Shown in pieces: positions 805 through 42,510 of a stretch of 64,000 bases of DNA. The DNA is from Botryllus schlosseri. Taxonomy: Eukaryota. Position numbers and translations under genes: made by a program. Every line of letters starts with the position of its first letter. Within the stretch, counting starts at the first letter, position 1. The notes below the pieces were generated by a model. That model was given only the letters and a program-made list of their open reading frames with translations, ran no database searches and was not told where the DNA came from. Where the stretch lies: the NCBI GenBank assembly GCA_051294905.1, contig CM119372.1, forward strand, positions 29,452,001-29,516,000. Direction: 5' to 3'.

Positions 805-2269
805 CTTGTTACTGATGAAATGAGGTATTTCTTACTGCTCGAGTTATAGTAGCGTGCGACAGTGTAGGGTATGGTGGCTTATATCTACCATACGCATAAA
901 AGTTCGTCAACACCAGGAGGTTTATCTGACCCATGCAATATATTCGACATTTACACATGTAAATTGATGCTACCTTGGCACATTTGAAAAAATCTCAAAC
1001 CCTTCCTATTTTACTGTCAGCTTACCTCACAACATTGCGTGTACGGTTACCAGTTCACTGCTCATTAATTTTATTGCGTGCTGTTCCATTTTGGGGGTCT
1101 TAACTTTCGCCAATAGTAAGTCTTTACAAAGAAATTCAATTTCTAAAGTGTATAAAGGTTGGGGACCTATCTTATAATTTGACAACACCTTTGTATTATG
1201 TTTTTCTGTAGATGGGGTCACTGCTAGCAGTACGTTACCACACTAGATTTACATGTCGTGAGATTCTGCTGCGATTTCCAAATAATCCCGTGTGTATAGG
1301 CCTATATACGTTCTTACACCGTTGTCCACATATGATATAAAGAAACTGGGGATATCATTGGAGCATCGGGGCTGTTTAAATGGATAATCTCATCCAAAAT
1401 AATTAGAATATATACACTGGAACATTTCCACACGTCAGTAGTATAGTAGCTCGCTGGCATGAGGCCATTGGCTCTTATGTGCGCGGCGGTGATGTGCCTG
1501 AAAACCCATGGTGGCACATCGTACTTTTGGAACCCCCCTCTCGGCGGTGATGTGCCATGTGTTCTTATGGGCGCGGTGATGATGCTACCCTTTCAGGTAT
1601 AGGCTGTGGTGATGATGGGCCGTGACAACTCGTGGTGATGTGTCGCACTTTCAGGTATAGGCTGCGGTGATGATGTGCCTGTGCGGCGATGACGGTACCC
1701 TTTCAGGTATATGCTGTGGCGATGATATGCCCACGGATTCTTGTGTCGTAAGTAGTGTAGTAGATCGGTCGTGACCTGGAAGGGGTTCTTATGGGCCCTC
1801 TCGCACGGTGCCTCGAAACTCGTGTTGGCACGGTGACCCTTTTGACCCCCCTTCCGTTCGCACGGTGCCATTGTGTCTTATGGGCTCTCTCACACGGTAA
1901 CCCTTTTCGGTATAGGGATCGCTCACACGGTGCTTCGAAAACTCGTGTTGGCACATCGTACTTTCAGGTATAGGCATCTCTCACACGGTGCCTCGAAAAC
2001 TCGTGTTGGCAAGTCGTACTTGTGGGTATAGGCATCTCTCGCACGGTGTTGAATATGTATCAGGTATGGAAAATAGTCACGTGATTGGAGGCATCTCTCG
2101 CACGTCGTACTTTCGGGTGTAGGCTGCGTTGGCATGTCGTAATTTCGGGTATAGGTATCCCTCGTGTGGTGTCTTATGGCTGCGGTGGCAAGTCGTACTT
2201 TCAGGTATTTAGTTTGCTACAGAGCCGGCGTAGACGGTGCTTCCAACAATAGCCGCGTTCACAAACCAA

Positions 2270-2880
2270 CACTTCAAATAGGTGTGAAATTGTTTGCAAA
2301 ACCCCGCGATCGCTGACAAGATAATGTCTCGGACATAGCCATCTTTCGTGACTTGGAGTTACAGGCATGCCGATGGCTCAAGGTGTGAAATTTTAGTAAG
2401 CAGTTTGTCACAGAACTTGATTTCACTCGTAATATTTAATAAGTAACGAATAACAGAACCACCAGTATCGGTAACTTGAATAGTGACAAATTGTCACTTA
2501 TTTCTGCTTTAACCCTAATCCTTTGTGAAGTGACCGCTTATTCAAAAAGGTGTGAAATAAGTTACAAATCCCACGATCGCTCACGAGATAACACCTAAGA
2601 CATAGCCATCTCTCACAACTTGTTGTTACATACATTCTAATCGCCATAATGTAATATTTTGATAATCAGTATGTCACAGAACTGGATTTCACTGGTAAAA
2701 TTTAATAAGTAACGAATAACAGAACCGTCGCAGACGGTGATTCGAATACCGAAAAATTCTCACTTATTTCCGATCCAACCCTAATCCTTTGCGAAGTTGA
2801 CGCTTATTCAGATAGGTGTGAAATAATTGTAAAACCCTACGTCGTTGACAGGATAATGCATCAGACATAACGATCTAGCT
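2270..2880. repeat. Diverged ~267-bp subterminal tandem repeat (two full units plus a partial third)
   Basis: Unit start GGTGTGAAAT...GACATA(G/A)C.ATC recurs at about 2281, 2549 and 2815; mirrored at about 14295-14900; related units at about 52030-52600 in E4. Confidence 0.8.
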
Positions 2881-5800
2881 ATAGCACGGGTCGGAATCCA
2901 TTCGCGAGATGTTCTATCGGTAAATTGAGGTAACCCGAAACGAAATATTTTGACTTGGTGTAGTGTAAATTGAAATAGGATTGACAAACATGACTACCAT
3001 CTTTCCCCCAGTCGCATTTCGATATTATACGCACATTGATTTGAAACAAGTAATGAAACATTTTAACTCTATTCACGATCCGGCTTTCCGTTTGTCAAAG
3101 AGACATTTTAACATCTTACCATACGCAAAATAATTATTCATAACATTAACCGGTGTTAAAAATATAGTTTTGACTTACTTGATTATATCACTACAACTTG
3201 CAAACTTGAATTAATTCATCCTGGTTGTATTCATATGACGATAATTTTTATTTAACTGTAAAGGTCGTTACTATTCTGTAAGACAAAGTATTTACTAATC
3301 GGTACATATACGACTTGGCATAAACCCATTACATTTTGAGTATATGAGATTTGAATGACTGAATAATAACTGAGAATTAAATTATCACAAGTGAATCCGT
3401 GAAAGATATTGGAATGTCAGCAACTCTTTACGTTCATAGTTACAACCACATTAACTAATTTACCCGGCCAACACGTCATGATCATTCCTGATATCAACAC
3501 AAACACGACCACTGACTTGAGTTAACCATAAAACGGCATCAAGTTTTTAATCCACTTGTAGCTTTCAGATTATTCGAATGCATCGATGGAGAATATTATT
3601 GGACTCGTCGATATTGTTACTTCAACAAATTATCGCTTACGCCGACTGCGAAAGTTAATATCGAATGATAAGATTTGATCACATATTTGTAGAACACAGA
3701 CATGACAAAGAACATTACTGATATTTTATAAACTAGTCATATTACTTTTCACATCTATCAATATCAGAATACAAGTCATCAATCTTTTTGTTAAATGTAA
3801 CATAGCACTTTTGGAATCGGATTCGTTATAGTCATACAAATTGTATTAAACCCAACACCAAAACAAAAGGACTTTCAAGTTCATTGAAATCAAATCATTC
3901 GTCTTCGACTTGCGCTTTATTAGATTGTACGCAACAATTCGTTACGAATGAGCTGTAACCATAGTTAAGAAATCTTTGTGTCCACAGATGTGGAAGATGA
4001 ATATAGCTAACACAATCACGAATCGACGTTTCAGAGTATTTCACGGATGTAATAAACTTGTTAGTGTCGCCTATCTAAAAGTATGCATGCGTTCGATATC
4101 CATACCGACAGTTGCGATGTTTAGGATTCGCTTACAATGACCAAGAGTGAGGATTTAACATCAATGTCGTTACTGGCGTATTGACAACAGAGAATCGAAA
4201 CATTACACAGTGTGAAAATATATCTTTGATATCCAAGCACTAACCCAAGTACACGATTAATACTCAACCCCGTTCACACTTTCTATAGAACGTGCTAAAT
4301 GTAAAATATCACGAGGTTGCAAGACTTTGATCATTACAAAAGTAAATTGGAATATGTTTGCTAGATGCATTCAATTCAGCTGGAAATGTCTAGTGCACAA
4401 CAATCGTAATATCAAGGAAGTACTTGCTACAGTGTAATATGCTAAACGTGTTTTGCATTGTTGTTCATTTGTAGTATTGATTGAAATTGTTCTTGAACCC
4501 TCAAGTAATAATTTCCGACATGAAACCAAACCGCTGAAAGTCGTTGCCATCACAAAGAAACAATTCGTACGAAGTTTGCCAAATGTGTACTATAGTTAGT
4601 AGTACTAGAATTATTTGTGTAACACATACACCGACAAAGAAATCGGAAATTTTTCCGTTGTCATTCGCTAAAGTAAATGCCATCACAATACTCTGTCACT
4701 AAAATACCATACTTGTATGTGATTGAATCCCTAACAATTAACTCACTAAACCGAACTCCAAAGAAATTTTACTCACTCGACGGATATGAAACAGCGTCGC
4801 TTAACCGGTCTATATCGTTTTCTAAAGGTAAATCATATCCGTCCAATAGAAAACAATTTTCATTAGCTTGGTAATGAAACCGAGTGGGTCTTCATTCAAT
4901 ATTTTGTTTGTGTCAAATACTTTGCAATAAACACACTGGAGTGGTTGAGCTTTACATCATCAGGCTGTAATCTGTAAATCAAGCCTACATTCGATTTGTA
5001 ACTGTATTGTTTACCTAACCGAGTTGTATGCAGAGTTTGATATTTTTGTCATTTAGTGATTGCTGAACATACCACTACGAAACACTCTGTTGATCTTAAT
5101 TCTCTTTGTCGTTATCATCGACGTACATTTGTTTCGAGTACGTAACAACCGACTTTTCTATGACATGATAATTTTTGACAAGTTATGCTTAGAAGATTGG
5201 TACATACCGCGAAAAATAATATACCACTCATATTGATACTGTTACTCCATTGATCAGTATTCTCAAACGGGTCGATTTTCAAACGAGTAAAATTAATTAC
5301 TTGAGTTGTTCTCCTTACTATATATGTAAATGTAAACTCACCCGTCTTTCAACAACAAACAATGATAAAAAGTATCCAATCAAACACAACAAGTTTTACT
5401 ATTAGCCAACTCAACTCATTTCTTACTGAAGGCATATGAAATATATTCATGTTACACGAAAATACTCGATATTCCCATGCTACAAACCTGTACAATGATT
5501 GGTGGTGCTTTCAAACTGTCTCGTTACCTCAAGAACTTTATTGTCTGAATGGTTGTTCATGTATCTTAATAATCAAATAGTTCAACACAGAACTAGTACG
5601 AACAGAAACATCAGAGTTGTTTACACAAAGTTTGTATGTGGATACCATGTGTAAGTCCAGCATAATTGTAGTATCTATCCGAGTGTAGTTAACAAAAATT
5701 TATTATAACAGAGCCGCGTAAACTTTCGTGAAAGAAAAGCATACCCACTTCCTGAGGCTTCTGTCAATGCCATAACAATAAACCAGCTACTCCAACAACA

Positions 5801-6619
5801 GAGTACATATGTTTTCTAGTCACGGTCCTTACATCTTTCACATAGATCAATCTACTTTGCTACCGAAAAGTGCTGAGTCATCACATGATTGTCCTCACAA
5901 CAAAACAACCAGTAGATGGAGCCGTATTAAAATTTTACCAACCCTTTGCACACCAGTGACAAATTATTAAGTGAATCGAGTTGTTGTTCAGCGTCAAGTC
6001 TCCATGTCGAAGCGAAGCGTACATTAAAACAGCGCAAACACAATCCAATTAAAACCACGAATCTATTTTCATTTCCTCACAAACTGCCACATACAGAAAA
6101 ACAAATTTTATTTTCCCAAAACATACTTGTAACCAATCGCTTTCATTAAACACACAACCCCATAAAAGTATTTACTTTCTACAACATAGACATTCCGATG
6201 TCGTCAAGAAATATTTTTATTAATCAAAATCACCGACTTCTGTTTACGGTGTTAGTGTGTGCATGTCATACATGTGGGACCCGTATTAAAATGGACACGA
6301 CACGACTGAATGTGAGGAGATAGAAGTCTATCGCATAGATTTACATGTGGTCTTCGCTACGGTTTCAAAAAACGAATCATCTCTTTTGCATTGATCGAGA
6401 CCGAACAAGTTAGTTACATGTATTCACGGTCATGATTGTGTTTGGCGTATGCGAATGATAGGGTTACTGTCAAATCTACATACAACAACCTTCTGGCGCT
6501 CATAATAGCAATTTCATTCTCTCCCTTCGTAATTGTATATTCACGACAAGTATATTGTACAACTCGACAGCTACGTTTAAAAAGACCAACGACACCGAAC
6601 CCACGACGTTTACCTATGT

Positions 6620-7060
6620 AAAATTACCACTTTCACTTGGCATTCCATCGTTTACCAGCCTAAACATATCATTTTCCTTTGGAGATCTGACGATTACCCA
6701 GAGTAAGAAACCATTTTCACTTGGAAATCTGTTTTTTCCCTGGGTAACAAACCTTTTTTCACTTGGAAATATATTTTTGTCCCGGGTAACAAACCTTTTT
6801 CGCTTGGAAATATATTTTTTACCTGAGCAACAAACCATTTTTGCTTGGAAATATATTTTCTCCCTGAGCAACAAACCATTTTCACTTGGCGGTCCGTCGT
6901 TTACCTGAGTAAAATATCATTTTCCTTTGGAGATCTGTCGTTTACCTGAGTAAAAATATCATTTTCCTTTGGAGATCTGGCGTTTACCCAGTGTAACAAT
7001 ACATTTTCACTTGGTCATCTATCTTTTCCTAGAGTAACAAAACCACTTTCATTTTGAAAT
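6620..7060. repeat. ~40-42 bp minisatellite (CCATTTTCACTTGGAAAT...GTAACAAA)
   Basis: About 10 diverged units; homologous arrays at about 10200-10600 (inverted), 20220-20550 and 41300-41720. Confidence 0.85.
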
Positions 7061-7789
7061 CTGACAAACACCCCTGCCAATTTGGTATTTGTTGTATTGA
7101 CGATAGTTTGAAATAGATTACAACGAACAGCGACAAAATATACACCAACAGCGACTCCGATGCATTTGCGTAATCGCATATTCACTTGTGCTGGTGCATC
7201 CCATCAAAATCATCGGTTGTCCACATGCAATGTGCTCTTGTATATCGAAATGTATGTTTGGGAAATTTGACAATAGGTTTCGATAGGTCTGTGATGTCCG
7301 GGTTCGTGCTTTGGATTGTCCAGAGTTAAAATGTCTGAATAAAACACCTCCTCGACTTTGGTAACTGGTTGGTACGTGGATAACGGTGTTCGGAAAACGG
7401 TTGGATTTATTTCAACCATCGCGATAACAATTCCGGGTCGAGTTTTCTCCCACATGTTTACTATATTGTGTCTTTATTGGTCAATGTATGTCTCGACATT
7501 CAGTTTGAAATCGGAAACCCTGATAAAGTACGTAACTGGATCCGGATACCAACTCTGAATCGATAAACCAATGAACAATATTCAAGTAAACATGTTACAC
7601 CCTGTGTTTCCACGAAAAAATACCATCCACACCTACGTCGCGATTGTTTGCCCACACAAGTATACGCGAAAATGGAGGTGTGTGACATTGCATGCAATGT
7701 GTTGGTATACAAACATCGGGGAGTAAGCCTTCGATCCACAGACATTATCTTAGCCGGTAATTTTGATGCAGATCGAATGTCACCAAGCA

Positions 7790-8120
7790 CCCCGCGATAA
7801 CAATACCAATAAGACACATTGCAATGACTCTGAGTCTGTAAATTCAATCCGAAGCATGACATACAGACACACAAACATGGAACCATAATATGGTTATTCG
7901 CACGACTACCATTGGTGGTGAAAGTGAACTGTACAGCATATACCAATAGAGCGTTCACAGTCGAATATGCGAACCATGCACGATCGTATACCCAGGTTTT
8001 GTTAGATATGTACGAATCCGATAAATCGATACATTTCCTTTCCTTCAACGTCAATAATACAAGGGTCATTCCAATGCATCGCTCGAATGTGAGGTTCATC
8101 GGGTGTAAAATCCATGTCAA
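7790..8120 (-). pseudogene. Possible decayed adenain-type (Polinton) cysteine protease relic
   Basis: Across shifted minus-strand frames: AMHW, then SDSY, then LQTQSHCNVSYWYC, loosely matching the HW / FDSYG / Q...CG.YC order of adenovirus-like proteases. Weak. Confidence 0.25.
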
Positions 8121-8219
8121 ATAGCACCAAAGTGTGCCTTCCGTGTTTTATTATTTCTACCGTCGCATCATGTCTGTGTCGTAACACTATGGTGCGGGGG
8201 TTTGAGAAACGGTACATTG

Positions 8220-8646
8220 CAGAGATGAGCATGGATTAGGATTAGGTTTTGAAAAAACAGGATTTGTGAAATTTTGTCGGATTTGGATTGGATTTGGATT
8301 AGACATTTTTTTCGGAACGGATTAGGATTTGGATTGGATTTACCTATTTTCTGGGAGATTGAGATGTCGTGTGGCGAATGGCAACAAACTTTATTCAGAT
8401 CAGTTATTAATGTACTTATGGTTACTAAGTTATATTGAATCAAGTGAATCGTTGGTTGTGAAAGAAAATTTTCGAATCCCTCCATTGCTAAAATTGGTAT
8501 TTTTTCTGAATTTCCAGTTGGAATCGGATTAGGATTGGACATGGACTTGAATATGAAAAAGTTTCGGATTAGGATTTGGATTTGGATTTGAAGGTTCAGA
8601 TTTGGATTGGATTAGGACATAGAAATTTCAAATCCGCTCATCTCTG
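8220..8646. mobile_element. hAT-type MITE (427 bp) in the E2 spacer
   Basis: TIR CAGAGATGAGC...GCTCATCTCTG; 8-bp TSD GTACATTG (8212-8219, 8647-8654); internal GGATT(A/T)G repeats. Confidence 0.92.
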
Positions 8647-8659
8647 GTACATTGTACAA

Positions 8660-8970
8660 CGGATTGACATGACCAACTGAAACCGACTTCAATAGCCTTG
8701 TGGTGATGCCGTTTCAAAATGCTACCGATATGGCAAACTGAAACCAACGTCAATAGCCTTGTGGTGATGTCGTTTCAAAATGTTACCGATATGACACACT
8801 GAACCCAACGTCAATAGTCTTGTGGTGATGCGGTTTCAAAATGTTACAGATATGACAAATTGAGACCAACCCGATCTCTTGTGGTGATGCGGTTTCAAAA
8901 TGTTACCTATATGACAAATTGAGACTAACCCCGATCTCTTGTGGTGATGGCCGTTTCGAAATGTCACCGG
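8660..8970. repeat. ~60-bp tandem repeat, about 5 copies
   Basis: TTGTGGTGATG recurs at about 8698, 8759, 8820, 8879 and 8939 with homologous intervening sequence. Confidence 0.9.
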
Positions 8971-9441
8971 ACGAGCTGGACAAACCCATACGGAGGTGTG
9001 TTTTATGATTGCGTGTGAAATCACGAGGTGGTGTTCTATTGTGGTGTACGATTGCAGTCTTCATTCCACAGAAACACACCTTATTGGATCACAGTATCAG
9101 TCCGAGATTTGCAGAATCACTGTTCACGATATTTATCTGGAGTCGTTATGTAGGAGTAGCGACATCCATTCATCGTGGCGTAGTGAAAGACTGATCGCAA
9201 TCATTTCGAGCACCGTACTTGGATAGTTCACCTTGGTCAAACGCTGTAGTCTCAGCAGAGAACTTCGGTGTCGACAACACGATGGATATCGACCGATGCA
9301 TCCAGTCACCAGTGGTCTGGGTGGTCTGTCCGCAGATAGGGTCATGACTATCTTGTAATGTTACAACACGATAACACCATCGAGTAAATCAGTGAACGGT
9401 GTCGAAATATCGATGTAATAGCGCGACAGTCATTTGACTCC

Positions 9442-12400
9442 GCAATGTGTCTTATTGGTATTGTTATCGCGGGGTGCTTAGTGACATTCGATCTGCATCA
9501 AAATTACCGGCTATGATAATGTCTGTGGATCGAAGGCTTACTCCCCGATGTTTGTATACCAACACATTGCATGCAATGTCACACACCTCCATTTACGCGT
9601 ATGCTTGTGTGGGCAAACAATCGCGACGTAGGTGTGGATGGTATTTTTTCGTGGAAACACAGGGTGTAACATGTTTACTTGAATATTGTGCATTGGTTTA
9701 TCGATTCAGAGTTGATATCCGGATCCAGTTACGTACTTTATCAGGGTTTCCGATTTCAAACTGAATGTCGAGACATACATTGACCAATAAAGACACAATA
9801 TAGTAAACATGTGGGAGAAAACTCGACCCGGAATTGTAATCGCGATGGGTGAAATAAATCCAAACGTTTTCCGAACACCGTTATCCACGTACCAACCAGT
9901 TACCAAAGTCGAGGAGGTGTTTTATTCAGACATTTTAACTCTGGACAATCCAAAGCACGAACCCGGACATCACAGACCTATCGAAACCTATTGTCAAATT
10001 TCCCAAACATACATTTCGATATACAAGAGCACATTGCATGTGGACAACCGATGATTTTGATGGGATGCACCAGTACAAGTGAATATGCGATTACGCAAAT
10101 GCACCGGAGTCGCTGTTGGTGTATATTTTTTCGCTGTTCGTTGTAATCTATTTCAAACTATCGTCAATACAACAAATACCAAATTGGCAGGGGTGTTTGT
10201 CAGATTTCAAAATGAAAGTGGTTTTGTTACTCTAGGAAAAGATAGATGACAAAGTGAAAATGTATTGTTACACTGGGTAAACGCCAGATCTCCAAAGGAA
10301 AATGATATTTTTACTCAGGTAAACGACAGATCTCCAAAGGAAAATGATATTTTACTCAGATAAACGACGGACCGCCAAGTGAAAATGGTTTGTTGCTCAG
10401 GTAAAAAATATATTTCCAAGCGAAAAAGGTTTGTTACCCGGGGCAAAAATATATTTCCAAGTGAAAAAAGGTTTGTTACCCAGGGAAAAAAACAGATTTC
10501 CAAGTGAAAATGGTTTCTTACTCTGGGTAAACGTCAGATCTCCAAAAGAAAATGATACGTTTAGGCAGGTAAACGATGGAATGCCAAGTGAAAGTGGTAA
10601 TTTTTCATAGGTAAACGTCGTGGGTTCGGTGTCGTTGGTCTTGTTAAACGTAGCTGTCGAGTTGTACAATATACTTGTCGTGAATATACAATTACGAAGG
10701 GAGAGAATGAAATTGCTATTATGAGCGCCAGAAGGTTGTTGTATGTAGATTTGACAGTAACCCTATCATTCGCATATGCCAAACACAATCATGACCGTGA
10801 ATACATGTAACTAACTTGTTCGGTCTCGATCAATGCAAAAGAGATGATTCGTTTTTTGAAATCGTAGCGAAGACCACATGTAAATCTATGCGATAGACTT
10901 CTATCTCCTCACATTCAGTCGTGTCGTGTCCATTTTAATACTGGTGCCACATGTATGACATGCACACACTAACACCGTAAACAGAAGTCGGTGATTTTGA
11001 TTAATAAAAATATTTCTTGACGACATCGGAATGTCTATTTTGTAGAAAGTAAATACTTTTATGGTGTTGTGTGTTTAATGAAAGCGATTGGTTACAAGTA
11101 TGTTTTGGGAAAATAAAATTTATTTTTCTGTATGTGGCAGTTTGTGAGGAAATGAAAATAGATTCGTGGTTTTAATTGGATTGTGTTTGCGCTGTTTTAA
11201 TGTACGCGTCGCTTCGACATGGAGACTTGACGCTGAACAACAACTCGATTCACTTAACAATTTGTCACTGGTGTGCAAAGGGTTGGTAAAATTTTAATAC
11301 GGCTCCATCTACTGGTTGTTTTGTTGTGAGGACAATCATGTGATGACTCAGCACTTTTCGGTAGCAAAGTAGATTGATCTATGTGAAAGATGTAAGGACC
11401 GTGACTAGAAAACATATGTACTCTGTTGTTGGAGTAGCTGGTTTATTGTTATGGCATTGACAGAAGCCTCAGGAAGTGGGTATGCTTTTCTTTCACGAAA
11501 GTTTACGTGGCTCTGTTATAATAAATTTTTGTTAACTACACTCGGATAGATAATACAATTATGCTGGACTTACACATGGTATTCACATACAAACTTTGTG
11601 TAAGCAACTCTGATGTTTCTGTTCGTACTAGTTCTGTGTTGAACTATTTGATTATTAAGATACATGAACAACCATTCAGACAATATAGTTCTTGAGGTAA
11701 CGCGACAGTTTGAAAGCACCACCAATCATTGTACAGGTTTGTAGCATGGGAATATCGAGTATTTTCGTGTAGCATGAATATATTTCATATGCCTTCGGTA
11801 AGAAATGAGTTAAGTTGGCTAATAGTAAAACTTGTTGTGTTTGATTGGATACTTTTTATCATTGTTTGTTGTTGAAAGACGGGTGAGTTTACATTTACAT
11901 ATATAGTAAGGAGAACAACTCAAGTAATCAATTTTACTCGTTTGAAAATCGACCCGTTTGAGAATACTGATCAATGGAGTAACAGTATCAATATGAGTGG
12001 TATAATATTTTTCGCGGTATGTACCAATCTTCTAAGCATAACTTGTCAAAAATTTATCATTTCATAGAAAAGTCGGTTGTTACGTACTCGAAACAAATGT
12101 ACGTCGATGATAACGACAAAGAGAATTAAGATCAACAGAGTGTTTCGAAGTGGTATGTTCAGCAATCACTAAATGACAAAAATATCAAACTCTGCATACA
12201 ACTCGGTTAGGTAAACAATACAGTTACAAATCGGAAGTAAGCTTGATTTACAGATTACAGCCTGATGATGTAAAGCTCAACCACTCCAGTGTGTTTATTG
12301 CAAAGTATTTGACACAAACAAAATATTGAATGAAGACCCACTCGGTTTCATTACCAAGCTAGTGAAAATTGTTTTCTATTGGATGGATATGATTTACCTT

Positions 12401-15400
12401 TAGAAAACGAAATAGACCGGTTAAGCGACGCTGTTTCATATCCGTCGAGTGAGTAAAATTTCTTTGGAGTTCGGTTTAGTGAGTTAATTATTAGGGATTC
12501 AATCACATACAAGTATGGTATTTTAGTGACATAGTATTGTGATGGCATTTACTTTAGCGAATGACAACGGAAAAATTTCCGATTTCTTTGTCGGTGTAAG
12601 TGTTACACAAATAATTCTAGTACTACTGACTATAGTACACATTTGGCAAACTTCGTACGAATTGTTTCTTTGTGATGGCAACGACTTTCAGCGGTTTGGT
12701 TTCATGTCGGAAATTATTACTTGAGGGTTCAAGAACAATTTCAATCAATACTACCAATGAACAACAATGCAAAACACGTTTAGCATATTACACTGTAGCA
12801 AACATATTCCAATTTACTTTTGTAATGATCAAAGTCTTGCAACCTCGTGATATTTTACATTTAGCACGTTCTATAGAAAGTGTGAACGGAGTTAGGTATT
12901 AATCGTGTACTTGGGTTAGTGCTTGGATATCAAAGATATATTTTCACACTGTGTAATGTTTCGATTCTCTGTTGTGAATACCCCAGTAACGACATTGATG
13001 TTAAATCCTCACTCTTGGTCATTGTAAGCGAATCCTAAACATCGCAACTGTCGGTATGGATATCGAACGCATGCATACTTTTAGATAGGCGACACTAACA
13101 AGTTTATTACATCCGTGAAATACTCTGAAACGTCGATTCGTGATTGTGTTAGCTATATTCATCTTCCATATCTGTGGACACAAAGATTTCTTAACTATGG
13201 TTACAGCTCATTCGTAACGAATTGTTGCGTACAATCTAATAAAGCGCAAGTCGAAGACGAATGATTTGATTTCAATGAACTTAAAAGTCCTTTTGTTTTG
13301 GTGTTGGGTTTAATACAATTTGTATGACTATAACGAATCAGATTCCAAAAGTGCTATGTTACATTTAACAAAAAGATTGATGACTTGTATTCTGATATTG
13401 ATAGATGTGAAAAGTAATATGACTAGTTTATAAAATCTCAGTAATGTTCTTTGTCATGTCTGTGTTCTACAAATATGTGATCAAATCTTATCATTCGATA
13501 TTAACTTTCGCAGTCGGCGTAAGCGATAATTTGTTGAAGTAACAATATCGACGAGTCCAATAATATTCTCCATCGATGCATTCGAATAATCTGAAAGCTA
13601 CAAGTGGATTAAAAACTTGATGCCGTTTTATGGTTAACTCAAGTCAGTGGTCGTGTTTGTGTTGATTTCAGGAATGATCATGACGTGTTGGCCGGGTAAA
13701 TTAGTTAATGTGGTTGTAACTATGAACGTGAAGAGTTGCTGACATTCCAATATCTTTTACGCTGTAATATACGGATTCACTTGTGATAATTTAATTCTCA
13801 GTTATTATTCAGTCATTCAAATCTCATATACTCAAAATGTAATGGGTTTATGCCAAGTCGTATATGTACCGATTAGTGAATACTTTGTCTTACAGAATAG
13901 TAACGACCTTTACAGTTAAATAAAAATTATCGTCATATGAATACAACCAGGATGAATTAATTCAAGTTTGCAAGTTGTAGTGATATAATCAAGTAAGTCA
14001 AAACTATATTTTTAACACCGGTTAATGTTATGAATAATTATTTTGCGTATGGTAAGATGTTAAAATGTCTCTTTGACAAACGGAAAGCCGGATCGTGAAT
14101 AGAGTTAAAATGTTTCATTACTTGTTTCAAATCAATGTGCGTATAATATCGAAATGCGACTGGGGGAAAGATGGTAGTCATGTTTGTCAATCCTATTTCA
14201 ATTTACACTACACCAAGTCAAAATATTTCGTTTCGGGTTACCTCAATTTACCGATAGAACATCTCGCGAATGGATTCCGACCCGTGCTATAGCTAGATCG
14301 TTATGTCTGATGCATTATCCTGTCAACGACGTAGGGTTTTACAATTATTTCACACCTATCTGAATAAGCGTCAACTTCGCAAAGGATTAGGGTTGGATCG
14401 GAAATAAGTGAGAATTTTTCGGTATTCGAATCACCGTCTGCGACGGTTCTGTTATTCGTTACTTATTAAATTTTACCAGTGAAATCCAGTTCTGTGACAT
14501 ACTGATTATCAAAATATTACATTATGGCGATTAGAATGTATGTAACAACAAGTTGTGAGAGATGTCTATGTCTTAGGTGTTATCTCGTGAGCGATCGTGG
14601 GATTTGTAACTTATTTCACACCTTTTTGAATAAGCGGTCACTTCACAAAGGATTAGGGTTAAAGCAGAAATAAGTGACAATTTGTCACTATTCAAGTTAC
14701 CGATACTGGTGGTTCTGTTATTCGTTACTTATTTAATATTACGAGTGAAATCAAGTTCTGTGACAAACTGCTTACTAAAATTTCACACCTTGAGCCATCG
14801 GCATGCCTGTAACTCCAAGTCACGAAAGATGGCTATGTCCGAGACATTATCTTGTCAGCGATCGCGGGGTTTTGCAAACAATTTCACACCTATTTGAAGT
14901 GTTGGTTTGTGAACGCGGCTATTGTTGGAAGCACCGTCTACGCCGGCTCTGTAGCAAACTAAATACCTGAAAGTACGACTTGCCACCGCAGCCATAAGAC
15001 ACCACACGAGGGATACCTATACCCGAAATTACGACATGCCAACGCAGCCTACACCCGAAAGTACGACGTGCGAGAGATGCCTCCAATCACGTGACTATTT
15101 TCCATACCTGATACATATTCAACACCGTGCGAGAGATGCCTATACCCACAAGTACGACTTGCCAACACGAGTTTTCGAGGCACCGTGTGAGAGATGCCTA
15201 TACCTGAAAGTACGATGTGCCAACACGAGTTTTCGAAGCACCCTGTGAGCGATCCCTATACCGAAAAGGGTTACCGTGTGAGAGAGCCCATGAGACACAA
15301 TGGCACCGTGCGAGCGGAAGGGGGGGTCAAAAGGGTCACCGTGCCAACACGAGTTTCGAGGCACCGTGCGAGAGGGCCCATGAAAACCCCTGCCAGGTCA

Positions 15401-15421
15401 CGACCAATCTACTACACTACT
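9442..15421 (-). repeat. E2 right inverted arm (~5.98 kb)
   Basis: Reverse complement of 1751-7822 with scattered substitutions and a few indels. Confidence 0.97.
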
Positions 15422-15427
15422 GTCGTG

Positions 15428-17673
15428 GTGAATAATGTTGTGGTGCGGTCATGATGTGATGTTGATTATGATGTAGATTGATCACGTGATTGATCCTTAC
15501 TTAATGTGTATATTCTAAATTATTATATATGACCGATTCGAGTTAATCCCAACGTTTACGGTGAGCGCGACTTCGATATATCGTTATTCTTATGGACGCG
15601 GCGATGATTCGTACCTTCGGGTATAGCCCGCGACGGCATGTTAACGTAGCTGATATAGACGCGGCGACATGATAACGTTACAGGTATAGGGATCGCTCAC
15701 ACGGTTATACATGAAGACGTCATAGTTCAGTCGTGACAAACGACCGATATCGCATTCTCTATTCTAACTCCAAGTCTTTTCGCGCTGCCTGTTGATTCCT
15801 ACGTAACCTGAATAGCACGCCGAGATTCAGCCTGGATTATTCGCACCTTCCATACCGCTGTTTCGTACCTACAAAATAGTCTGCTGTTCGCAATCGTGAC
15901 AAGATAATATTATTCAAAGTCTGTAGACATAGCACTGTCTTATATCAATATTATTAAGAATGTTTATCGCTTGGTTGTCGGACTATTCACTCGTTGATTT
16001 GAAACAAACGTTGAAACTTACAACTCTATCATTGGTCTATAATTATTTTAGTTACAACTGAGTTTTCTGAAAATGCTATCATTATCGCACCCCGAAATTT
16101 TACCGTGTTAGAACACACAAGAGCGTCAAGCACAAAAACATTCACAAGTGTTAAAACTAATTTTCACTTACTTGATTATATTATTACAACCTGTAAACTT
16201 TATTAATTCATCCTGGTGAACCCACGAATAGTGTTGCTCGCTTGTAATATTCACATATTGATCTGAATAATAACAACTCATGAGACCCTACAACTTTATT
16301 AACGAACTAGTTATTTTTACGAAACTGGAAATGCAAACTCTATTCGTCTCGACATCTCGACATCTTACAACACTCGAAAGAGTCAATTATGAAAGCACCG
16401 CCAAGTAAATCCGTTGTAACTCACATAGCACAAGAGTATGTATCCGAAAGTAGACAAACGACACTTGGACAACCACCACATCCAACACTCAATATCTGTT
16501 GTATTCTTCATATTTAATTATTCTACTGTAAAAGCGATTGATAGTTTTCACGACACAACAACTACAAATCAATGCTTGCGACTTGAGATTAACATTGAGT
16601 GTATGAGATTTGAATATCCGAAAAATAACCGAGAATTAATTTCCCACAGACGAATCCGTATACTTTAATGTAAGATATCGTGAGGTAAGTAAGTTCTTTA
16701 CGATGACATTGATTCACAATCCGATATTCTCATCATACCCATTCTTGAAATCAACTCTTAACGGTAATACGAACAATCGTGACATCAACTTTCAAACACA
16801 TCGAATTATTCACACATTCCGCGCCGCTGTTTTCGCCCCAATAGAATCAATACCAACTAGCTCTACAAGAATCAAGAATCACAAGTACGCACATTATACA
16901 GCCATTGTATTTATCAAGTTGAAATCAAGCTCTTAACAAAAACACGCATCTAATCACTTACCAACTCTATCATGAAAATCCTCGAATCCTTATTATTAAG
17001 AATGTTATAGTACAGCGTCGGAATCCATTCGCGAGATGTTCTATAGGTAAATTGAGATCACACAAAATGAAATAGTTTGACTTTGGTGTAGTGGGATTTG
17101 AAATAGGATGGACAAACATGACTGCCAACTTTCACCCAGTCACATTTCGAGATTATACGCACCTTGATTTGAAACAAGTAATGAAATATTACAACTATAT
17201 TCGCGATCCGGCTTTACGTCTGTCAAAGATAGTTTCAGAAATACTATCACTATGACATCTCAACATTTTAACATCTTGCCATACGCAAATGAGTAAAATA
17301 CAAAAACCTTGTCAAGTCAATCCGTTTATAACTTACCAGACCAACTCAACAGTACCCGTATGAAAAGTAAACAAGATTGCGCGAGGACATACAACCACTA
17401 CAACCTAAAATCAATAACTAGTTCGGTTGTATTCGTAGTCCGACGATGCGTCTTTTTTATTCAACTTTAAGTCGTTACTATCCTGTAAGATAAAGGAATT
17501 ACTACGCGGTATATTCTGCAAGACAAAGTAATTACTACTCGATATATTTTGTAAGACAAAAGTAATTACTAATCATTGCAGGTGACTCGAGATTAACATA
17601 ATATGTTTGAGTATACGAGATTTGAAAGTCTGATCAACGTAGTTGGGAATTCATTTCTTACAATCGAACGCTG
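15428..17673 (+). repeat. E1 left inverted arm, distal part (continues 1437-1750)
   Basis: Reverse complement of about 21101-23330; mirrored ORF-track entries 16438..16668(+) ~ 22107..22337(-) and 16703..16936(+) ~ 21839..22072(-). Confidence 0.95.
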
Positions 17674-20600: not shown

Positions 20601-20750
20601 TTACAACGAACAGTGACGAAAATATACACGACAACCGGTTTCAGAGTATACTCTCGTCGGTAGCATCACATCTATATCATCGGGTAACCACATGAAATAA
20701 CAATATGCTCTTGTATATCGAAATGTATGCTTTGGAAAATAACGAATTTT

Positions 20751-20782
20751 GTGTGTCCCGGTGTGTGTGTGTGTGTGTGTGT
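20751..20782. repeat. (GT)n microsatellite in the E1 spacer
   Basis: GTGTGTCCCGGTGTGTGTGTGTGTGTGTGTGT; absent from the homologous positions in E2 (~7290) and E4 (~41925). Confidence 0.85.
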
Positions 20783-21100
20783 CCGGGTTCGTGCTTTAGT
20801 TTTTCCACAGAGTGAATATGTCTGAATAAAACACCACCTCGACTTTGGTACCTTGTTGGTACATGGATAACGGTGGTCGGAAATCGATGAATTTAGGTTC
20901 CCGTCGCGCTAACAATCCCGGGTTACTTGTGATTTCCCTCACACATGTTTACTATATCGTGTCACTCTTTATTGGTCAATACATATCACACCGTTCAGTT
21001 TGAAATCGGAAACCCGAGAAAGTATTAACCGGATCCGGATATCAACTCGGAATCGAAAAACCAATGAACAATATTCAAACATGTTACACCCCGTGTAACA

Positions 21101-23662
21101 CAGCGTTCGATTGTAAGAATTGAATTCCCAACTACGTTGATCAGACTTTCAAATCTCGTATACTCAAACATATTACGTTAATCTCAAGTCGCCCGCACCG
21201 AGTAGTAATTACTTTTGTCTTACAAAATATATCGAGTAGTAATTACTTTGTCTTGCAGAATATACCGCGTAGTAATTCCTTTATCTTACAGGATAGTAAC
21301 GACTTAAAGTTGAATAAAAACGACGCATCATCGGACTACATATGCAACCGAACTAGTTATGGATTTTAGGTTGCAGTGGTTGTATGTCCTCGCGCAATCT
21401 TGTTTACTTTTCATACGTGTACTGTTGAGTTGGTCCGGTAAGTTACAAACAGATTGACTTGACAAGTTATTTTTTATTTTACTCTTTTGCGTATGGCAAG
21501 ATGTTAAAATGTTGGGATGTCATAGTGATAGTATTTCTGAAACTATCTTCGACAAACGTAAAGCCGGATCGCGAATATAGTTGTAATATTTCATTACTTG
21601 TTTCAAATCAATGTGCGTATAATCTCGAAATGTGAATGGGTGAAAGTTGGCAGTCATGTTTGTCATTCCTATTTCAAATCCCACTACACCAAAGTCAAAC
21701 TATTTCATTTTGGGTGATTTCAATTTACCTAAAGAACATCTCGCGAATGGATTCCGACGCTGTACTATAACATTCTTAATAATAAGGATTCGAGGATTTT
21801 CATGATAGAGTTGGTAAGAGGTAAGATGCGTGTTTTTGTTAAGAGTTTGATTTCAACTTGATAAATACAATGGCTGTATAATGTGCGTACTTGTGATTCT
21901 TGATTCTTGTAGAGCTAGTTGGTATTGATTCTATAGGCGCGAAAACAGCGGCGCGGAATGTGTGAATAATCCGATGTGTTTGAAAGTTGATGTCACGATT
22001 GTTCGTATTTTCGTTAAGACTTGATTTCAAGAATGGGTATGATGAGAATATCGGATTGTGAATCAATGTCATCGTAAAGAACTTACTTAACTCATGATAT
22101 CTTACATTAAAGTATACGGATTCGTCTGTGGGAAATTAATTCTCGGTTATTTTTCGGATATTCAAATCTCGTACACTCAATGTTAATCTCAAGTCGCAAG
22201 CATTGATTTGTAGTTGTTGTGTCGTGAAAACTATCAATCGCTTTTACAGTGAAATAATTAAATATGAAGAATACAACTGATATTGATTGTTGGATTTGGT
22301 GGTTGTCCAAGTGTCGTTTGTCTACTTTCGGATACATACTCTTGTGCTATGTGAGTTACACCGGATTTACTTGGCGGTGTTTTCATAATTGACTCTTTCG
22401 AGTGTTGTAAGATGTCGAGATGTCGAGACGAATAGAGTTTGCATTTCCAGTTTCGTAAAAATAACTAGTTCGTTGATAAAGTTGTAGGGTCTCATGAGTT
22501 GTTATTATTCAGATCAATATGTGAATATTACAAGCGAGCAACACTATTCGTGGGTTCACCAGGATGAATTAATAAAGTTTACAAGTTGCAATAATATAAT
22601 CAAGTAAGTTAAAATTAGGTTTAACACTTGTGAATGTTTTTGTGCTTGACGCTCTTGTGTGTTCTCTAACACGGTAAAATTTCGGGATGCGATAATGATA
22701 GCATTTTCAGAAAACTCAGGTGTAACTAAAATAATTATAGACCAATGATAGAGTTGTAAGTTTCAACGTTTGTTTCAAATCAACGAGTGAATAGTCCGAC
22801 AACCAAGCGATCAACATTCCTAATATTATTGATATAAGACAGTGCTATGTCTACAGACTTTAAATAATATTATCTTGTCACGATTGCGAACAGCAGACTA
22901 TTTTGTAGGCACGAAACAGCGCTATGGAACGTGCGAATAATCCAGGCTGAATCTCGGCGTGCTATTCAGGTTACGTAGGAATCAATAGGCAGCGCGAAAA
23001 GACTTGGAGTTAGAATAGAGAATGCGATATCGGTCGTTTGTCACGACTGAACTATGGCGTCTTCATGTATAACCGCGTGAGCGATCCCTATACCTGTAAC
23101 GTTATCATGTCGCCGCGTCTATATCAGCTACGTTAACATGCCGCCGCGGGCTATACCCGAAAGTACGAATCATCGCCGAGTCCATAAGAATAACGATACC
23201 GTAAACGTTGGGATTAACTCGAATCGGTCATATATAATAATTTGGAATATACACATTAAGTAAGGATGAATCAGTGATCAATATACTTCATAATCAACAT
23301 CACATCATGACCGCACCACAACATTATTCACTACGACACAAGAATCTGTGGGCACATCATTGCCACAGCATATACCTGAAAGGCTACCGTCATCGCTGCA
23401 CAGGTACATCATCACCGCAGCCTATACCTGAAAGTGCGTCTCACCACCTCGAGTTTTCACGGCACATCATCACCACAGCCCATACCTGAAAGGGTGCCAT
23501 CATCACCGCACCCATAAGAACACATGGCACATCACCGCCGAGAGGTGGGGGTCCAAAAGTACGATGTGCCACCACGGGTTTTCAGGCACATCACCGCCGC
23601 GCCCATAAGATCATAAGATCGCGTTAGCCAATGGCCTCATGCCAGCGATCTACTATACTACT
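21101..23662 (-). repeat. E1 right inverted arm (2.56 kb)
   Basis: Reverse complement of 1437-1750 joined to 15428-17673. Confidence 0.95.
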
Positions 23663-27545: not shown

Positions 27546-27728
27546 GACCGTAACTGCCGCACCCCAAAACCCCCAATTGGGGGGGGGAGGTCGAAGGGGG
27601 CCCAAAATTATTTCGTGAATTAGCATAAATTATAGAGTATTTTTTGAAAATTCATGCAACTTTTGAAAAAAATTTCGCGCTAGGTGCGATTTCAATCTGC
27701 CGAATATCTTGATTTTAGGGTACTCTTC

Positions 27729-29332
27729 AGTAGTTAGTATGATCGCTCGTGAGGTGCGTGGGGTTCTTATGGGTGCGGCCGCATGCTAACGCGAAACTCG
27801 TGGTCGCATACTAACGTTTTCAGGTATAGTCTCCGGTCGCATGATAGCGTTACGGAGATAGGGATCGGTCGCATGCTAACGTTTTCGGGTATAGGCTGCG
27901 GTGACATGCTAACGTGAAAACTCGTGGTGGCATGCTAATGTTTTTAGGTATACGTGTGGCGACATGTTAACGTATCAGTTATAGGGCGGGGTGATGAAGT
28001 TGTGTTTCGGCGGCATGCTAACATTTGAACCGTGGCCATCGTCGACACGGTAAATAGTCACGTGATTGATCCTTACTTAATGTATATATCCCAAATTATT
28101 ATATATGACCGATTCGACGTAGTCCCAACGTTTACGGTGAGTGCGACAATTAAATATATCAATTCAATATATCGTTATTCTTATGGACGCGGCGATGACT
28201 CGTACTTTCGGGTGTAGCCCGCGGCGGCATGTTAACGTAGCTGATATAGACGCGGCGACATGATAACGTTACAGGTATAGGGATCGCTTATACGGTTCTA
28301 CATGAAGACGTCATAGCTCAGCCGTGAGAAATGACCGATATCGCATTCTTTATTCTAACTCCAAGTCTTTTCGCCCTCCCTATTGATTCCTGCGTAACCT
28401 GAATAGTACGCCGAGATTCAGCCTGGATTATTCGCACGTTCCATACCGCTGTTTCGCACCTACAGAATAGTCTGCTGTTCACAACCGCGACAAGAATCAC
28501 AAGTACACGCATATATGCATTCATTGTATTTATTACTCTGAAATCAAACTCTTCACAAAAGCACGAACAATCGTATCATTACCTTTTTCATCATCACCAA
28601 AATAATTCAAGTATTCCTTGGCTGAAAATCCTTGAGCTCGTTTTATCAAGAATGTTATAGCATGATCTCCACAGACACCCGAAATTTTACTCTGTAACTG
28701 TTTCCCAGTCACGGAAAATTCGGAAAATTGATCCGACTCAAGGAATTCGATTATCTGGGGTTTTAGTGGTCCGAAACCTAGTGAACCATGAAAATGAGTA
28801 TCCCCATCTCTGAATCTAGACACCCAGCGAGGCCCCGGTCAAGTTCGACTCGTCGTAACTTTCAACTACGTTCTCGGGTTATTCGTACGTTCCACGCCGC
28901 TGTTTTCACACTTATAGAATCAATACCAACTATCTCCGCGCGTCAAGAATACCCAGAGAATATTTAATCACTTTATTAATTTATCAACTTCAAATCAAAC
29001 TCTTAACAAAAACACACATCTTATCATTTGCTAACTCCAGCATCACCAAAAAAAAATCAGGCGTCGGAATCCATTCATGGGATCTACTACAGGTAAACTG
29101 AGATAATCCAACATGAAATATTTTGACTTTGACATAGTCTCAATTGAAATAGATTGACAAATATGACTACCAACTTTCAACCCAGTCATATTTAGAGATT
29201 ATACGCATATTGATTTGAAACAAGTAATGAAACCTTACAACTCTATTCACGACTGAGTTTTCCGTTTGTCAAATAGAGTTTCAGTAAATATTATCACTAT
29301 GGCATCTCGATATTTTAATGTGTTACTACACA
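27729..29332 (+). mobile_element. E3: left end of a third Polinton-family element (truncated or interrupted)
   Basis: Starts AGTAGTTAGTATGATCGCTCGTGA with the same terminal scaffold; 28050-28495 is highly similar to E1 15480-15905 and later parts to 16800-17290. No matching right end in the window. Confidence 0.85.
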
Positions 29333-34428: not shown

Positions 34429-35389
34429 GGGGAGATGTGGTACCGATGGATCACTGGGACCGAAAATACTTGAAAAATTTTCCATGATAATTCTATGATT
34501 GCACTCCGTGAATTTTTCTACAATAACATGCTGAAAGAATCTTTCCTCACATGCAAAAAAATTCGACCTGCGCGAGTTATGGGGTCTGTGACGAATGATT
34601 TACGTTTTAGGGGGTGTGAAGTAAATTTAGATCGACATTTGCATTTTTCTATATCACCTCACAGACTAACAAACCCGCCATAATTTTTAATGTGAATTAT
34701 AGGGCTTGTATCAGGGTATATGATGCCACATATTTTTTGAATCAATACCATCCTCGAGTGGACTATTTTCAAGTCAATTACAATATTTATGGGGTGGGGG
34801 ACCTATGGTACCATAGCCAAATCAAGCCAAACAGATGGGCCAACTAATCACTTAACAACAGAAACTCGCCTGCATATATATAGGCGTTAAATCATAGTTA
34901 CATGTGGTGTTTTATCCCTATTACGAGGTATTTGAAAGTCAAAATGTCGATTTGCAGGTAATATGTATGTGGCATTAATTTTGTACGTTTAGGCGTAAAT
35001 CAAAGCATGATTTTATGCCAACATTTGGGTTGATATAATCTATTTTATTCTTGAAGGTCGCAACGAAACATTCTTCATTGGCTTGCTGTAGCTTAGCTTA
35101 CAGTACACAACAAAACAAGTTAACAAATTTGAGTTTTTGAGCGTATGTCTCATAGCTCCCATGATCGTGTGCCTTTGGACCAACCGGTGGGGACCGATGA
35201 CACGTTCGAGCAACAAATTTTAAACGTTCATAAATATTTTTTGAATAATCGCATATTCATGTAAATGTCCGCGATAGTTAGAGCTTGTATCAAAGTGTTG
35301 AGACAGCAAAAGATCCGCTATTCTCGGCTGAAGATTTGAGGGCTAGAGATCATTTTGCAATTTTTGATCCATCGTGACCACATCTCCCC
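34429..35389. mobile_element. TA-target DNA transposon MITE (961 bp), intact copy
   Basis: TIR GGGGAGATGTGGT(A)C.GATGGATC; TA on both sides; the empty site TGTACAAGTACTTCGCTATCG is seen at 63733-63753. Confidence 0.88.
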
Positions 35390-35803
35390 TACTTCGCTAT
35401 CGACTCCCTCCACGTGAAAAGGGACTAGGTTTTAGAGTACTTTATCAGTACTTGACAGTGTCAGTTTTAGACAAAATTTGGAATAAAAAACTAGCTCATT
35501 CACCCATTCGGAAATTTCTTCTTTAACCTGTACTTGAGTGTAGCGAGTAAATCTCATTTATTATTAATTCTACATGTACACTTGACCATGTGTTATGACT
35601 TACATAATTACTTTTCGCTATATTTGAAGTCTGTCAAATTGCAGTATATGTTACGGTGAGCTTATATTCGTTCTGTTTGATCATCTTGACTAACGATATT
35701 CATTCGACGAGCTCTTCAGTGATAGCCCTTGGACTTGGAACAGTGTTGTTTGACATCATAACGATACCAAGTTACGACAGTTTAAAATTATATACCTTAC
35801 GAC

Positions 35804-35997
35804 CAATGTTCCCTCTAATTTTTGACGGGTCTGCGCACACTCACCAACTCACTGCGCAGACCCTTGGAAAACAGTGCGCAACGACTAAAAAAAAGGTCAT
35901 CACTTCAGATTTTTTGTGCGCAACTTGGATCTTCTGTGCGCAGAGACCGTGAAAGTACTGCGCATTTGCGCACGTGCGCAGCTTAGAGGGAACATTG
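35804..35997. mobile_element. hAT-type MITE (194 bp)
   Basis: TIR CAATGTTCCCTCTAA...TTAGAGGGAACATTG; 8-bp TSD CTTACGAC. Confidence 0.92.
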
Positions 35998-36845
35998 CTT
36001 ACGACACCAAATTTCGTTACTTCATCTCCACCTTCAAATATCGTGATATACAAATATTGTGTATACGGGACAAATACATATATGGCTATGTTGTTGCAAT
36101 CTTCAAAAAAGTACATCCCTCAGTAACCAATTTCTCGTAGGCTATGCATACAAATGAGGACAGTTACATCAACGAGAGGTAACTTGTTGTATTATGTAGC
36201 TAGTAATTAGTGCAAGTGAGTCCGCAACTACTGTTCAAGGCCTTTTCCTCGTTTTTACCAAGCATCCTCGTAAGGATAGACAGCCCCAATCAGCTAATGT
36301 AAGTGTGTACTGTGTATGTATGTATGAGGGGTCTTATGCCGCTTGACGAATGAAGTTGATCGTCTATTCTTTTCTGAAATAATCAAGTTAGTGGTTTTTA
36401 ACACGACCTCACCTCGTAGAAACTTCAGTAGAATAACTTATAACCCCTCACGTTTACTCAAGTAAATCTAATTTGATAATCAAGTACTGAATCTTGATTT
36501 TCCAACGAGTTCAAATTTAGCTCTAACTTATGAGATTAAATATAATAACTTTTCATGTTGCAGTGTAATTTACAGCATGAGCCAAGTGATTTCATAATTA
36601 ACACAAAATAAATAAATGAATTACTAGAGTAATATAAGATATTCGTGTCATCCTCCTTCGTATATCATAAAATAATACCTAGGGGAGATGTGGTACCGAT
36701 GGATCACTGGGACCGAAAATACTTGGAAAATTCTCCATGGTAATCCCATGATTACACTCCGTGAATTTTCCTACAAATACATGCTGACAGAATCTTTCCT
36801 CACATGCAAAAAAAATCGACCTGCGTGAGTTATGGGGTCTGTGAC

Positions 36846-37685
36846 AGTAGTTATATAGATCGCTCGTGATTTGCCTGGGGCTCTTATGGGCCCGCTCGCA
36901 CGCGGCTGGGAAACTCGTATTGGCACGCGGCTCCTTATGTCTTATGGGCCCGCTCGCACGCGGCTATTGCGTCTTATGACCCCTCTCACACGGTAACTCT
37001 TTTCAGTATAGCGATCGCTCGCACGCGGCTGGGAAACTCGTGTTGGCATGCGGCTCTTATGTTTTATGGGTGCGTTGGCATGCGGCTATTGCGTATTATG
37101 GCGGGGGTGGCAAGCGGCTCTTATGTCTTATGGCGGCGGTCGCAAGCGGCTGGGAAACTGGGGGTGGCAAGCGGCTCTTTTGTCTTATGGCGGCGGCGGC
37201 ATGCGGCTATTGTGTCTTGTGGTCGCACGGTAACCCTTTTCAGCATAGGGATAGCTCGCACGCGGCTTCGTTGTTGGCATGTCGTACTTCGTGTTGAATA
37301 TGTATCAAGTAAATAGTCATGTGATTGGTCCTTAGGTAATGTGTATATTCCAAATTACGGCGAGTACGACAATGATATATCGTTATTCTTATGGACGCGG
37401 CGATGATTCGTACTTTCAGGCATCTCTCGCGCGGTGTTGAATATGTACGAGTCACCAACAATAACCGCGCGGACGGAAACGTGGTTTGTTGTGAGGATTA
37501 AGCAGTGCGTGCGACCTATATTTCGAATGACCTGTGCGCTGAATTATTTCTCGTCCAGCCGCTACTATCGATTATTACACTATTCCATTCAGTGCGAAAT
37601 AGTTTGCTAAATCTAGGAATCAGTCGCATGGTGTTACTTTAGTAATTAGCTTACCATAGAGCCGGCGTAGCCGGTGATTCGAATA
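36846..37685 (+). repeat. E4 left terminal inverted repeat
   Basis: Reverse complement of about 52598-53437; identical mirrored ORF-track entries 37040..37297(+) and 52986..53243(-). Confidence 0.95.
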
Positions 37686-42467: not shown

Positions 42468-42510
42468 TTGTTGTTTATTGAAAACTCGATAAAGTGCATT
42501 TGTTTATATA

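Follow-up and report, generated by a model that had tools for sequence, protein, structure and literature searches.

What is the function of the short repeated words that fill the ends of some large mobile elements? This question is raised by a 64,000-nucleotide stretch of the Botryllus schlosseri genome (assembly GCA_051294905.1, contig CM119372.1, positions 29,452,001 to 29,516,000, forward strand; here, the window), in which four insertions, E1 to E4, begin with arrays of short units separated by linkers. The first-pass annotation of these arrays proposed that they are binding sites for an element-encoded factor that changes with them in each subfamily, in the manner of plasmid iterons or adenovirus packaging repeats, and that they possibly define helper specificity. 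The binding-site proposal gains partial and indirect support from the analysis below, and our preferred reading, to which we give a probability of about 0.6, is that the words may be iteron-like sites for an element-encoded reader that diverges between subfamilies.

All four insertions begin with AGTAGT, and the end motif (AGT)2 ... (ACT)2 was present at 7/7 ends found. A terminal-pattern search of the window confirmed the termini at 1437 (E1), 1751 (E2), 27729 (E3) and 36846 (E4), as first annotated. The 6-bp target duplications of E1 and E4 are exact, and that of E2 (GTCGTA/GTCGTG) matches at 5/6 bases. Terminal inverted repeats (TIRs) are present in E1, E2 and E4; no right end of E3 was found within the window, and this element is known from its end at 27729 only. 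E4, for which an empty paralogous site lies at 34427-35393, is the sole element of the four with a protein-primed family B polymerase (pPolB), which is split in two frames. When 581 open reading frames (ORFs) of related loci were compared with the window, the matches were confined to pPolB, a remnant of an ATPase and, in E3, that of one small gene, and the window copies yielded no rve integrase or capsid genes; thus, all four copies would need a helper. In total, these features indicate that the four ends are TIRs of one large Polinton/Maverick family and that the window elements are defective or non-autonomous Polinton derivatives.

As had been claimed, the four ends alternate linkers with a short repeated unit. 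Repeated 9-mer pairs in the first 330-460 bp numbered 40 (E1), 66 (E2), 26 (E3) and 154 (E4), far above the maxima of 4-6 in 300 dinucleotide shuffles per end. Counted in bp from the terminus, the first seven unit cores lie at 54, 79, 111-112, 143-144, 176-177, 202-203 and 234-235 in each element, i.e. the distance is equal within 1 bp across E1-E4 even where the linker type was replaced. All 32 slot spacings listed (n=6, 5, 13, 8) were 25-26 or 32-33 bp, for slots that were chosen by eye, without a 19-bp step in E4 and without the irregular slots that come later in E1 and E3. Across the seven slots, E1 and E2 are colinear, and E3 and E4 replaced some linkers without a change in spacing; moreover, the short linker measures 10 bp where it leads into slot 2 and 11 bp where it leads into slot 6 in each of E1, E2 and E3, despite changed flanking units. 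The 32-33-bp steps fit three helical turns, whereas the 25-26-bp steps do not. Each array is closed by the motif TCA(C/T)GTGATTG, which was found in E2 and also at 15094 (-), 15482 (E1), 28058 (E3), and 37317 and 52966 (-) (E4), and which we take to be an E-box plus a CCAAT-like sequence. Single units may resemble RFX, NFI, p53 or YY1 consensus sequences; these resemblances were not used. The terminus is taken as the replication start because of protein priming (PMC8097293). Judged from sequence, an iteron-type feature is present, i.e. short direct repeats at conserved positions beside the replication start. E2 is inserted at 1750/1751 inside the end array of E1, just past its last regular slots, and separates this array from its closing motif.

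The units follow the element while the linkers follow the slot. Over 15 columns, unit identity was 0.69 within an element versus 0.49 at the same slot between elements, and 0/5000 label permutations reached 0.69; within the four ends, unit types are thus not randomly mixed. By contrast, the identity of long linkers was 0.48 within an element versus 0.61 at the same slot, and 2055/5000 permutations reached the within value. The column-wise element effect was +0.16 to +0.52 at 12/14 offsets (-4 to +9) and at most +0.14 outside. Between elements, 13/14 unit columns varied versus 18/50 linker columns (Fisher p 0.00015), and units and linkers have thus not diverged equally; only the four slots with a linker type common to all elements supplied the linker columns, a choice that favours the contrast, which was 0.47 versus 0.57 with all long linkers taken in. 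Of the shared linkers named in the first-pass annotation, TTTC(A/G)GGTATAGG has no exact match in E4. We conclude that the arrays consist of fixed slots and of element-specific words that have a sharp 14-bp border and diverge faster than the spacers, i.e. register, footprint and divergence of the words were observed.

The units are incompletely homogenised. The term stands here for 69% identity over 15 columns, and in the left ends the literal unit given for E3 was found once and that for E2 twice. Certain units go with the slot and not with the element: U4 of E2 and U4 of E4 agree at 14/15 bases, as do E1 U2 and E2 U6, and both pairs escaped homogenisation. Tandem Repeats Finder (TRF) reported periods of 58 (E1), 58 (E2), 33 (E3) and 32/121 (E4), and the left array of E4 contains 121-bp block duplications. 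Tracts common to slots are 11-16 bp long in E1-E3, and in E4 two identical 26-bp tracts between slots include the linker. Copying between slots was thus observed. The first-pass annotation had held that simple tandem re-duplication does not easily account for such arrays; re-duplication does occur, as the TRF periods and the E4 tracts demonstrate, and copying explains the spread of a word but is not a ready explanation of the sharp border, the constant spacing and the faster divergence.

These observations bear on a neutral explanation, in which the array is a patchwork that goes back to an old minisatellite of 32 bp within a TIR prone to recombination, the words have no protein reader, and template switching with biased micro-conversion homogenises only stretches that are still similar. 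The TRF arrays in all ends, the 26-bp E4 tracts with their linker, public contigs with unit-skipping or unit-repeating joints and mixed head/tail forms, and the fact that the elements are mosaics of one another's arms are all in line with it, and the TIRs of Galileo likewise expand and exchange (PMC3573991). Also, unit positions were unprotected in a comparison of the left and right ends of E1 (11/135 vs 8/143), which mainly measures decay after insertion. Yet unbiased spread should not give units a faster divergence than spacers, as was observed; homogenisation bypasses the linkers between two homogenised units; and spacing is held within 1 bp across 235 bp despite linker replacement. Moreover, in toy simulations of mutation and conversion, run with and without a homology requirement, 0/1215 combined homogenised units with unhomogenised linkers and a faster divergence of the units. 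We consider the neutral explanation quite unlikely.

Units could also pair with each other in a displaced single-stranded end, in which case the concerted changes would be compensatory. E1 U1 and U2 have an 8-bp inverted match, and the units of E2 and E3 are partly self-complementary (0.52, 0.59); however, folding of both strands of the four ends (8 strands) gave z values of -1.4 to +2.9 and no shared fold. Single-strand structure is therefore disfavoured, and its probability is very low.

Other genomic copies were found in public contigs. The region 1380-2400 was matched by 8803, 1264 and 265 contigs in three runs, and by 140 RNA reads that carry no information on function; most matches were 90-99% alike and, therefore, the family is large and diverse. 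A CA-to-AC change at offsets 0 and +1 of U1, U2 and U5 was detected in all 4 runs (among 40 of 93 differences), in data independent of the slot definition; the contexts of U1 and U5 are similar, and short contigs may be counted at both. Loose contig ends had ACCGG cores in adjacent units, plus a further type, GGTCGTGA(A/T)TCGCC. These data indicate that ACCGG is a fifth core type that switches at the same positions (three slots). The terminal pattern had no match in viral or metagenome contigs.

Which protein could read the words? No binding protein for them was identified in the window. The candidates put forward in the first-pass annotation (ORFs 48054-48899 and 43078-43626 and the pPolB N terminus) could not be tied to the words: the ORFs are orphans without usable homologues, and the N-terminal piece of E4 pPolB has no tandem C2H2 fingers. 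For ORF 48054-48899, there was no match in Pfam or the Atlas and no usable homologue; a match to a repeat protein was judged spurious, and assignment as a basic helix-loop-helix protein was not supported by the low-confidence four-helix model (predicted local distance difference test score, pLDDT, 60), which matched generic bundles only. Homologue searches with ORF 43078-43674 gave nothing usable. For pPolB, 337 relatives were detected at E <= 1e-20, with PF03175 in most of the 120 listed; the three named matches are molluscan proteins, and searches of viral contigs gave nothing or weak partial matches. A capsid-like alignment yielded a single locus (L073), which shows no end and has no N-terminal fingers. 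In seven related loci, protein identities singled out no gene that tracks the end word.

The related metagenome loci are ordinary Polintons with an rve-chromo integrase and an ATPase. In the pPolB tree, a quick tree in which E4 sits on a long branch, a finger pattern with variable recognition helices was present in the first 230 residues of 36/44 other polymerases, part of these being truncated proteins that show an internal finger instead. The ends of several related loci (L019, L021, L035-L038, L045, L049, L054 and L062) hold their own short repeated words. The ends of L045 and L049 are colinear over ~90 bp, and GGAGCAGTTCG is common to L018 and L045 just inside the terminus. A screen for repeats at contig ends flagged 14/48 ends versus 13/266 interior windows, which is only a lead because simple repeats or flank make up roughly half of the ends so flagged.

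We applied the finger code, using published helix-to-triplet tables (PMC3607563, PMC5260015), to nine loci with an end and fingers, chosen by eye from 65 with one per near-identical group; in 2/9 cases the end is that of the contig and lacks the terminal motif. The L018 polymerase has three N-terminal C2H2 fingers recognised by Pfam, which under the helix table of PMC3607563 predict GAGGAGGT. This word occurs 7 times in the 250 bp behind the AGTAGT end of L018 (0.01 expected) and 0 times in the 8 other ends; the right end of L018 is not in the contig, and the terminus was placed from the motif. The two fingers of L045 predict GGGAT, which was found 3 times versus 0.33 expected. Among the nine ends, the outcome was clear in two (L018, L045), a trivial GG in one (L021) and a failure in six (assignment permutation p 0.004). 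The L018 case shows that the words in a Polinton end can agree with a protein of the same element; it does not establish the same for the window family. The three-finger domain of L018 and its 9-bp word are the best lead for binding.

A further alternative is that host transcription factors bind the array, the TIR being an enhancer/promoter or an auxiliary origin; the words would then shift as subfamilies adopt other host factors or escape host repressors, and slot copying would spread the changes. Consistent with this, the linkers are conserved, as is the E-box/CCAAT-like motif at the close of each array, which recurs in L040, L041, L043 and L062, and the ends of other Polintons (L021, L018) contain GGAAGT-type words, which we presume to be ETS sites. 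In addition, PMC12548392 proposes that competition with host factors drives iteron change. However, a single host species harbours at least five core types, where a single factor would favour a single word; escape alone erodes sites and would not install a new common word at fixed slots; and the L018 word fits the fingers of its own element. In total, a host-factor array is unlikely.

In the preferred reading, a sequence-specific protein of the cognate autonomous element would bind the 14-bp recognition sites between conserved spacers. As the specificity of this reader drifts, mutation, short-patch copying and block duplication would carry a new word into the slots, where selection would retain it while the spacing stays fixed. 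The likeliest step is that the reader loads the protein-primed replication machinery at the end, in iteron fashion; in a rough division of the probability given above, replication loading takes somewhat over half, and packaging and integration, each improbable, share the rest about equally. The role of reader would fall to the N-terminal C2H2 fingers of pPolB in relatives, and in the window lineage, which lacks N-terminal fingers, another element protein would have to serve. The gene-poor E1 and E2 would keep the word so that a matching helper can use them. Binding, a reader and helper specificity are what we infer here. More tentatively, slot words in the TIRs of animal Polintons may form an iteron code that is read by the variable C2H2 fingers of a terminal-protein/polymerase precursor, or by a substitute where the fingers were lost; this wider proposal is possible but doubtful. 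If true, such a code would split coexisting Polintons and palindromic satellites into replication groups, and helper-satellite pairs would be predictable from sequence.

Several points weigh against the preferred reading. Plasmid iteron sites are phased on a single helical face, and the units here, given the 25-26-bp steps, would not all lie on one face. Only four ends were compared, which are mutually related, and the slots and the 15-column window were set by eye after the pattern had been seen; the simulation was a toy without biased conversion. Public contigs have mixed head/tail units and joints that skip or repeat whole units, and others join E1-like to E2-like pieces (mosaic ends); together with the slot-specific units and the 26-bp E4 tracts, they show that a large part of the array owes its form to copying alone. 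The finger code failed in 6/9 ends and was trivial in one, the permutation p is 0.03 without L018 and then rests partly on the trivial GG word, and the end sequences had already been seen before the code was applied. Neither E4 pPolB nor its sister P0001 has N-terminal fingers and, therefore, the L018 result is not directly transferable. Finally, PMC12548392 found iteron identity to be non-essential for replication in its virus.

Table 1. Elements, end arrays and genes in the window, and the L018 locus used for comparison (positions of L018 are those of that locus).
Feature	Position	Strand	Remarks
E1	1437..23662	+	Polinton-family, gene-poor; inverted arms ~2.5 kb; target duplication CACGTC
E1 left array	1437..1750	+	14-bp units at 1486, 1511, 1544, 1576, 1609, 1635, 1667; TGATG in most cores; E2 breaks the array at 1750
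E1 right array	23332..23662	-	same slots, displaced 16-17 bp by an indel near the terminus
E2	1751..15421	+	near-palindromic Polinton-family element within left arm of E1; arms ~6 kb
E2 left array	1751..2090	+	units at 1800, 1825, 1857, 1889, 1922, 1948, 1980 and further; core CACGG
E2 right array	15080..15421	-	
TCA(C/T)GTGATTG motif	2077..2088	+	closes E2 array
E3 array	27729..28070	+	units at 27778, 27803, 27836, 27868, 27901, 27927, 27959; core CATG, tail TAACG
Small-gene remnant in E3	28539..28892	-	broken; resembles a 154-173 aa gene of related Polintons
E4	36846..53437	+	defective Polinton, 16.6 kb; TIR 847 bp; target duplication TGTGAC
E4 left array	36846..37330	+	units at 36895, 36920, 36953, 36985, 37018, 37043, 37075 and further; tail GCGGCT
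E4 right array	52953..53437	-	
Packaging-ATPase remnant	42282..42464	-	broken; Walker A region
198-aa orphan ORF	43078..43674	-	downstream of pPolB
pPolB main open frame	43739..46615	-	37-44% identity to best Polinton-type relatives
pPolB N-terminal part	46606..47643	-	separate frame (split gene); one internal finger at 46713
281-aa orphan ORF	48054..48899	-	upstream of pPolB; C-terminal part predicted, with low confidence, as four helices
L018 end	256-505		7 GAGGAGGT words, both orientations
L018 polymerase	2688-3500		three fingers

The arms of the elements have a layout of their own. E1 and E2 both copy the left arm of E4 up to ~42212-42228 of E4 and then turn into the inverted arm, a copy-back layout with a nearly equal turning point in E1 and E2 (15422-21101 and 4424-7822 versus 37775-42228). 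The arms are mosaics of E3-like and E4-like pieces, and those of E1, E2 and E4 share a tandem repeat of 41-42 bp in 8-11 copies (6607-7063, 10201-10557, 20227-20545, 41369-41718); a 33-bp repeat lies at 17479-17571, 21197-21295 and 38722-38799. The unique centre of E2 contains a 61-bp tandem repeat in 5 copies (8669-8969). A 107-bp segment immediately left of E3 (27553-27655) is 79% identical to an inverted segment in E4 (51034-51140), and degraded short Polinton-arm pieces at 33252-33620, 71-78% identical to the arms of E1, E2 and E4, may be the far part of E3.

We presume, from motifs and gene position, that the small-gene remnant of E3 is a maturation protease; it had no Pfam match. E4 also contains a 173-aa ORF (49134-49655, +) with no Pfam match and with motifs that may resemble Bcl-2 family helices. 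Elsewhere in the window, another dispersed repeat family of ~400-550 bp, 80-98% alike and in both orientations, was found at 32667-33208, 33878-34428, 54261-54824, 56025-56354 and 63694-64000. At 58969-61752 lies an inverted pair of 518 bp at 98% with an inner 420-bp inverted match, where the AGTAGT pattern search found no end.

Polinton/Maverick elements were reportedly treated by Kapitonov and Jurka in 2006. The window elements resemble them in the (AGT)2 end motif, the 6-bp target duplication, the long TIRs, pPolB and the ATPase remnant (PMC8097293, PMC10748475), and differ in that the window copies are without integrase and capsid genes. The accessible parts of these two papers describe TIR length and the 6-bp end motif and no internal slot arrays, subfamily words or finger-word matching, and such arrays are also undescribed in those of PMC11296320, PMC11131425, bioRxiv 2024.01.15.575659 and bioRxiv 2024.03.18.585575. 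In the open-licence literature, our searches turned up neither slot arrays nor a match of fingers to end words for Polintons; Repbase entries and supplements, outside this scope, could hold TIR alignments. To the extent of these texts, published cis-acting Polinton signals stop at the 6-bp end motif, and the fixed-slot array of subfamily words would be a candidate specificity signal, which could explain the coexistence of many subfamilies and gene-poor satellites in one genome.

The adenovirus A-repeats, to which the arrays had been likened, are seven repeats less than 400 bp from a protein-primed end, with important spacing and bound by the IVa2 ATPase (PMC5033970); the ATPases of related Polinton loci match Pfam Adeno_IVa2 weakly. 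The comparison fits poorly, as the A-repeats are AT-rich, lie at one end outside the inverted terminal repeat and keep their consensus across serotypes (PMC5033970), whereas the window units have a GC-rich composition, are found within the TIRs at both ends and change from one subfamily to the next. By position and composition, the arrays are not an adenovirus-type packaging domain, of which a TTTG-N8-CG motif is a further feature.

Galileo/Foldback elements share with the window family coexisting subfamilies with a common tip, extra sites in TIR repeats and TIR-only derivatives (PMC3688188, PMC3573991), and the Galileo TIR repeats carry subfamily-selective THAP sites (PMC3688188). However, Galileo belongs to the P-type cut-and-paste transposons, possesses a THAP domain and has its extra sites in long direct repeats, whereas in the window elements short words change in place between differing spacers. 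No Pfam match to a P-type transposase with THAP was found among 10 window ORFs, and the ends and the polymerase are Polinton-type.

In plasmid iterons, the repeats are read by a replicon-encoded protein. Geminivirus iterons keep their positions while their sequence changes, also between close relatives, and the Rep system has a replicon-encoded reader that possibly competes with host factors (PMC12548392). The window arrays are alike in conserved positions and differing sequence, and they differ in that 7-14 sites, each 14 bp long, occupy both ends of an integrating element that is linear and protein-primed, with no Rep. They would be a eukaryotic case of sites and reader changing together, traceable over hundreds of genomic copies.

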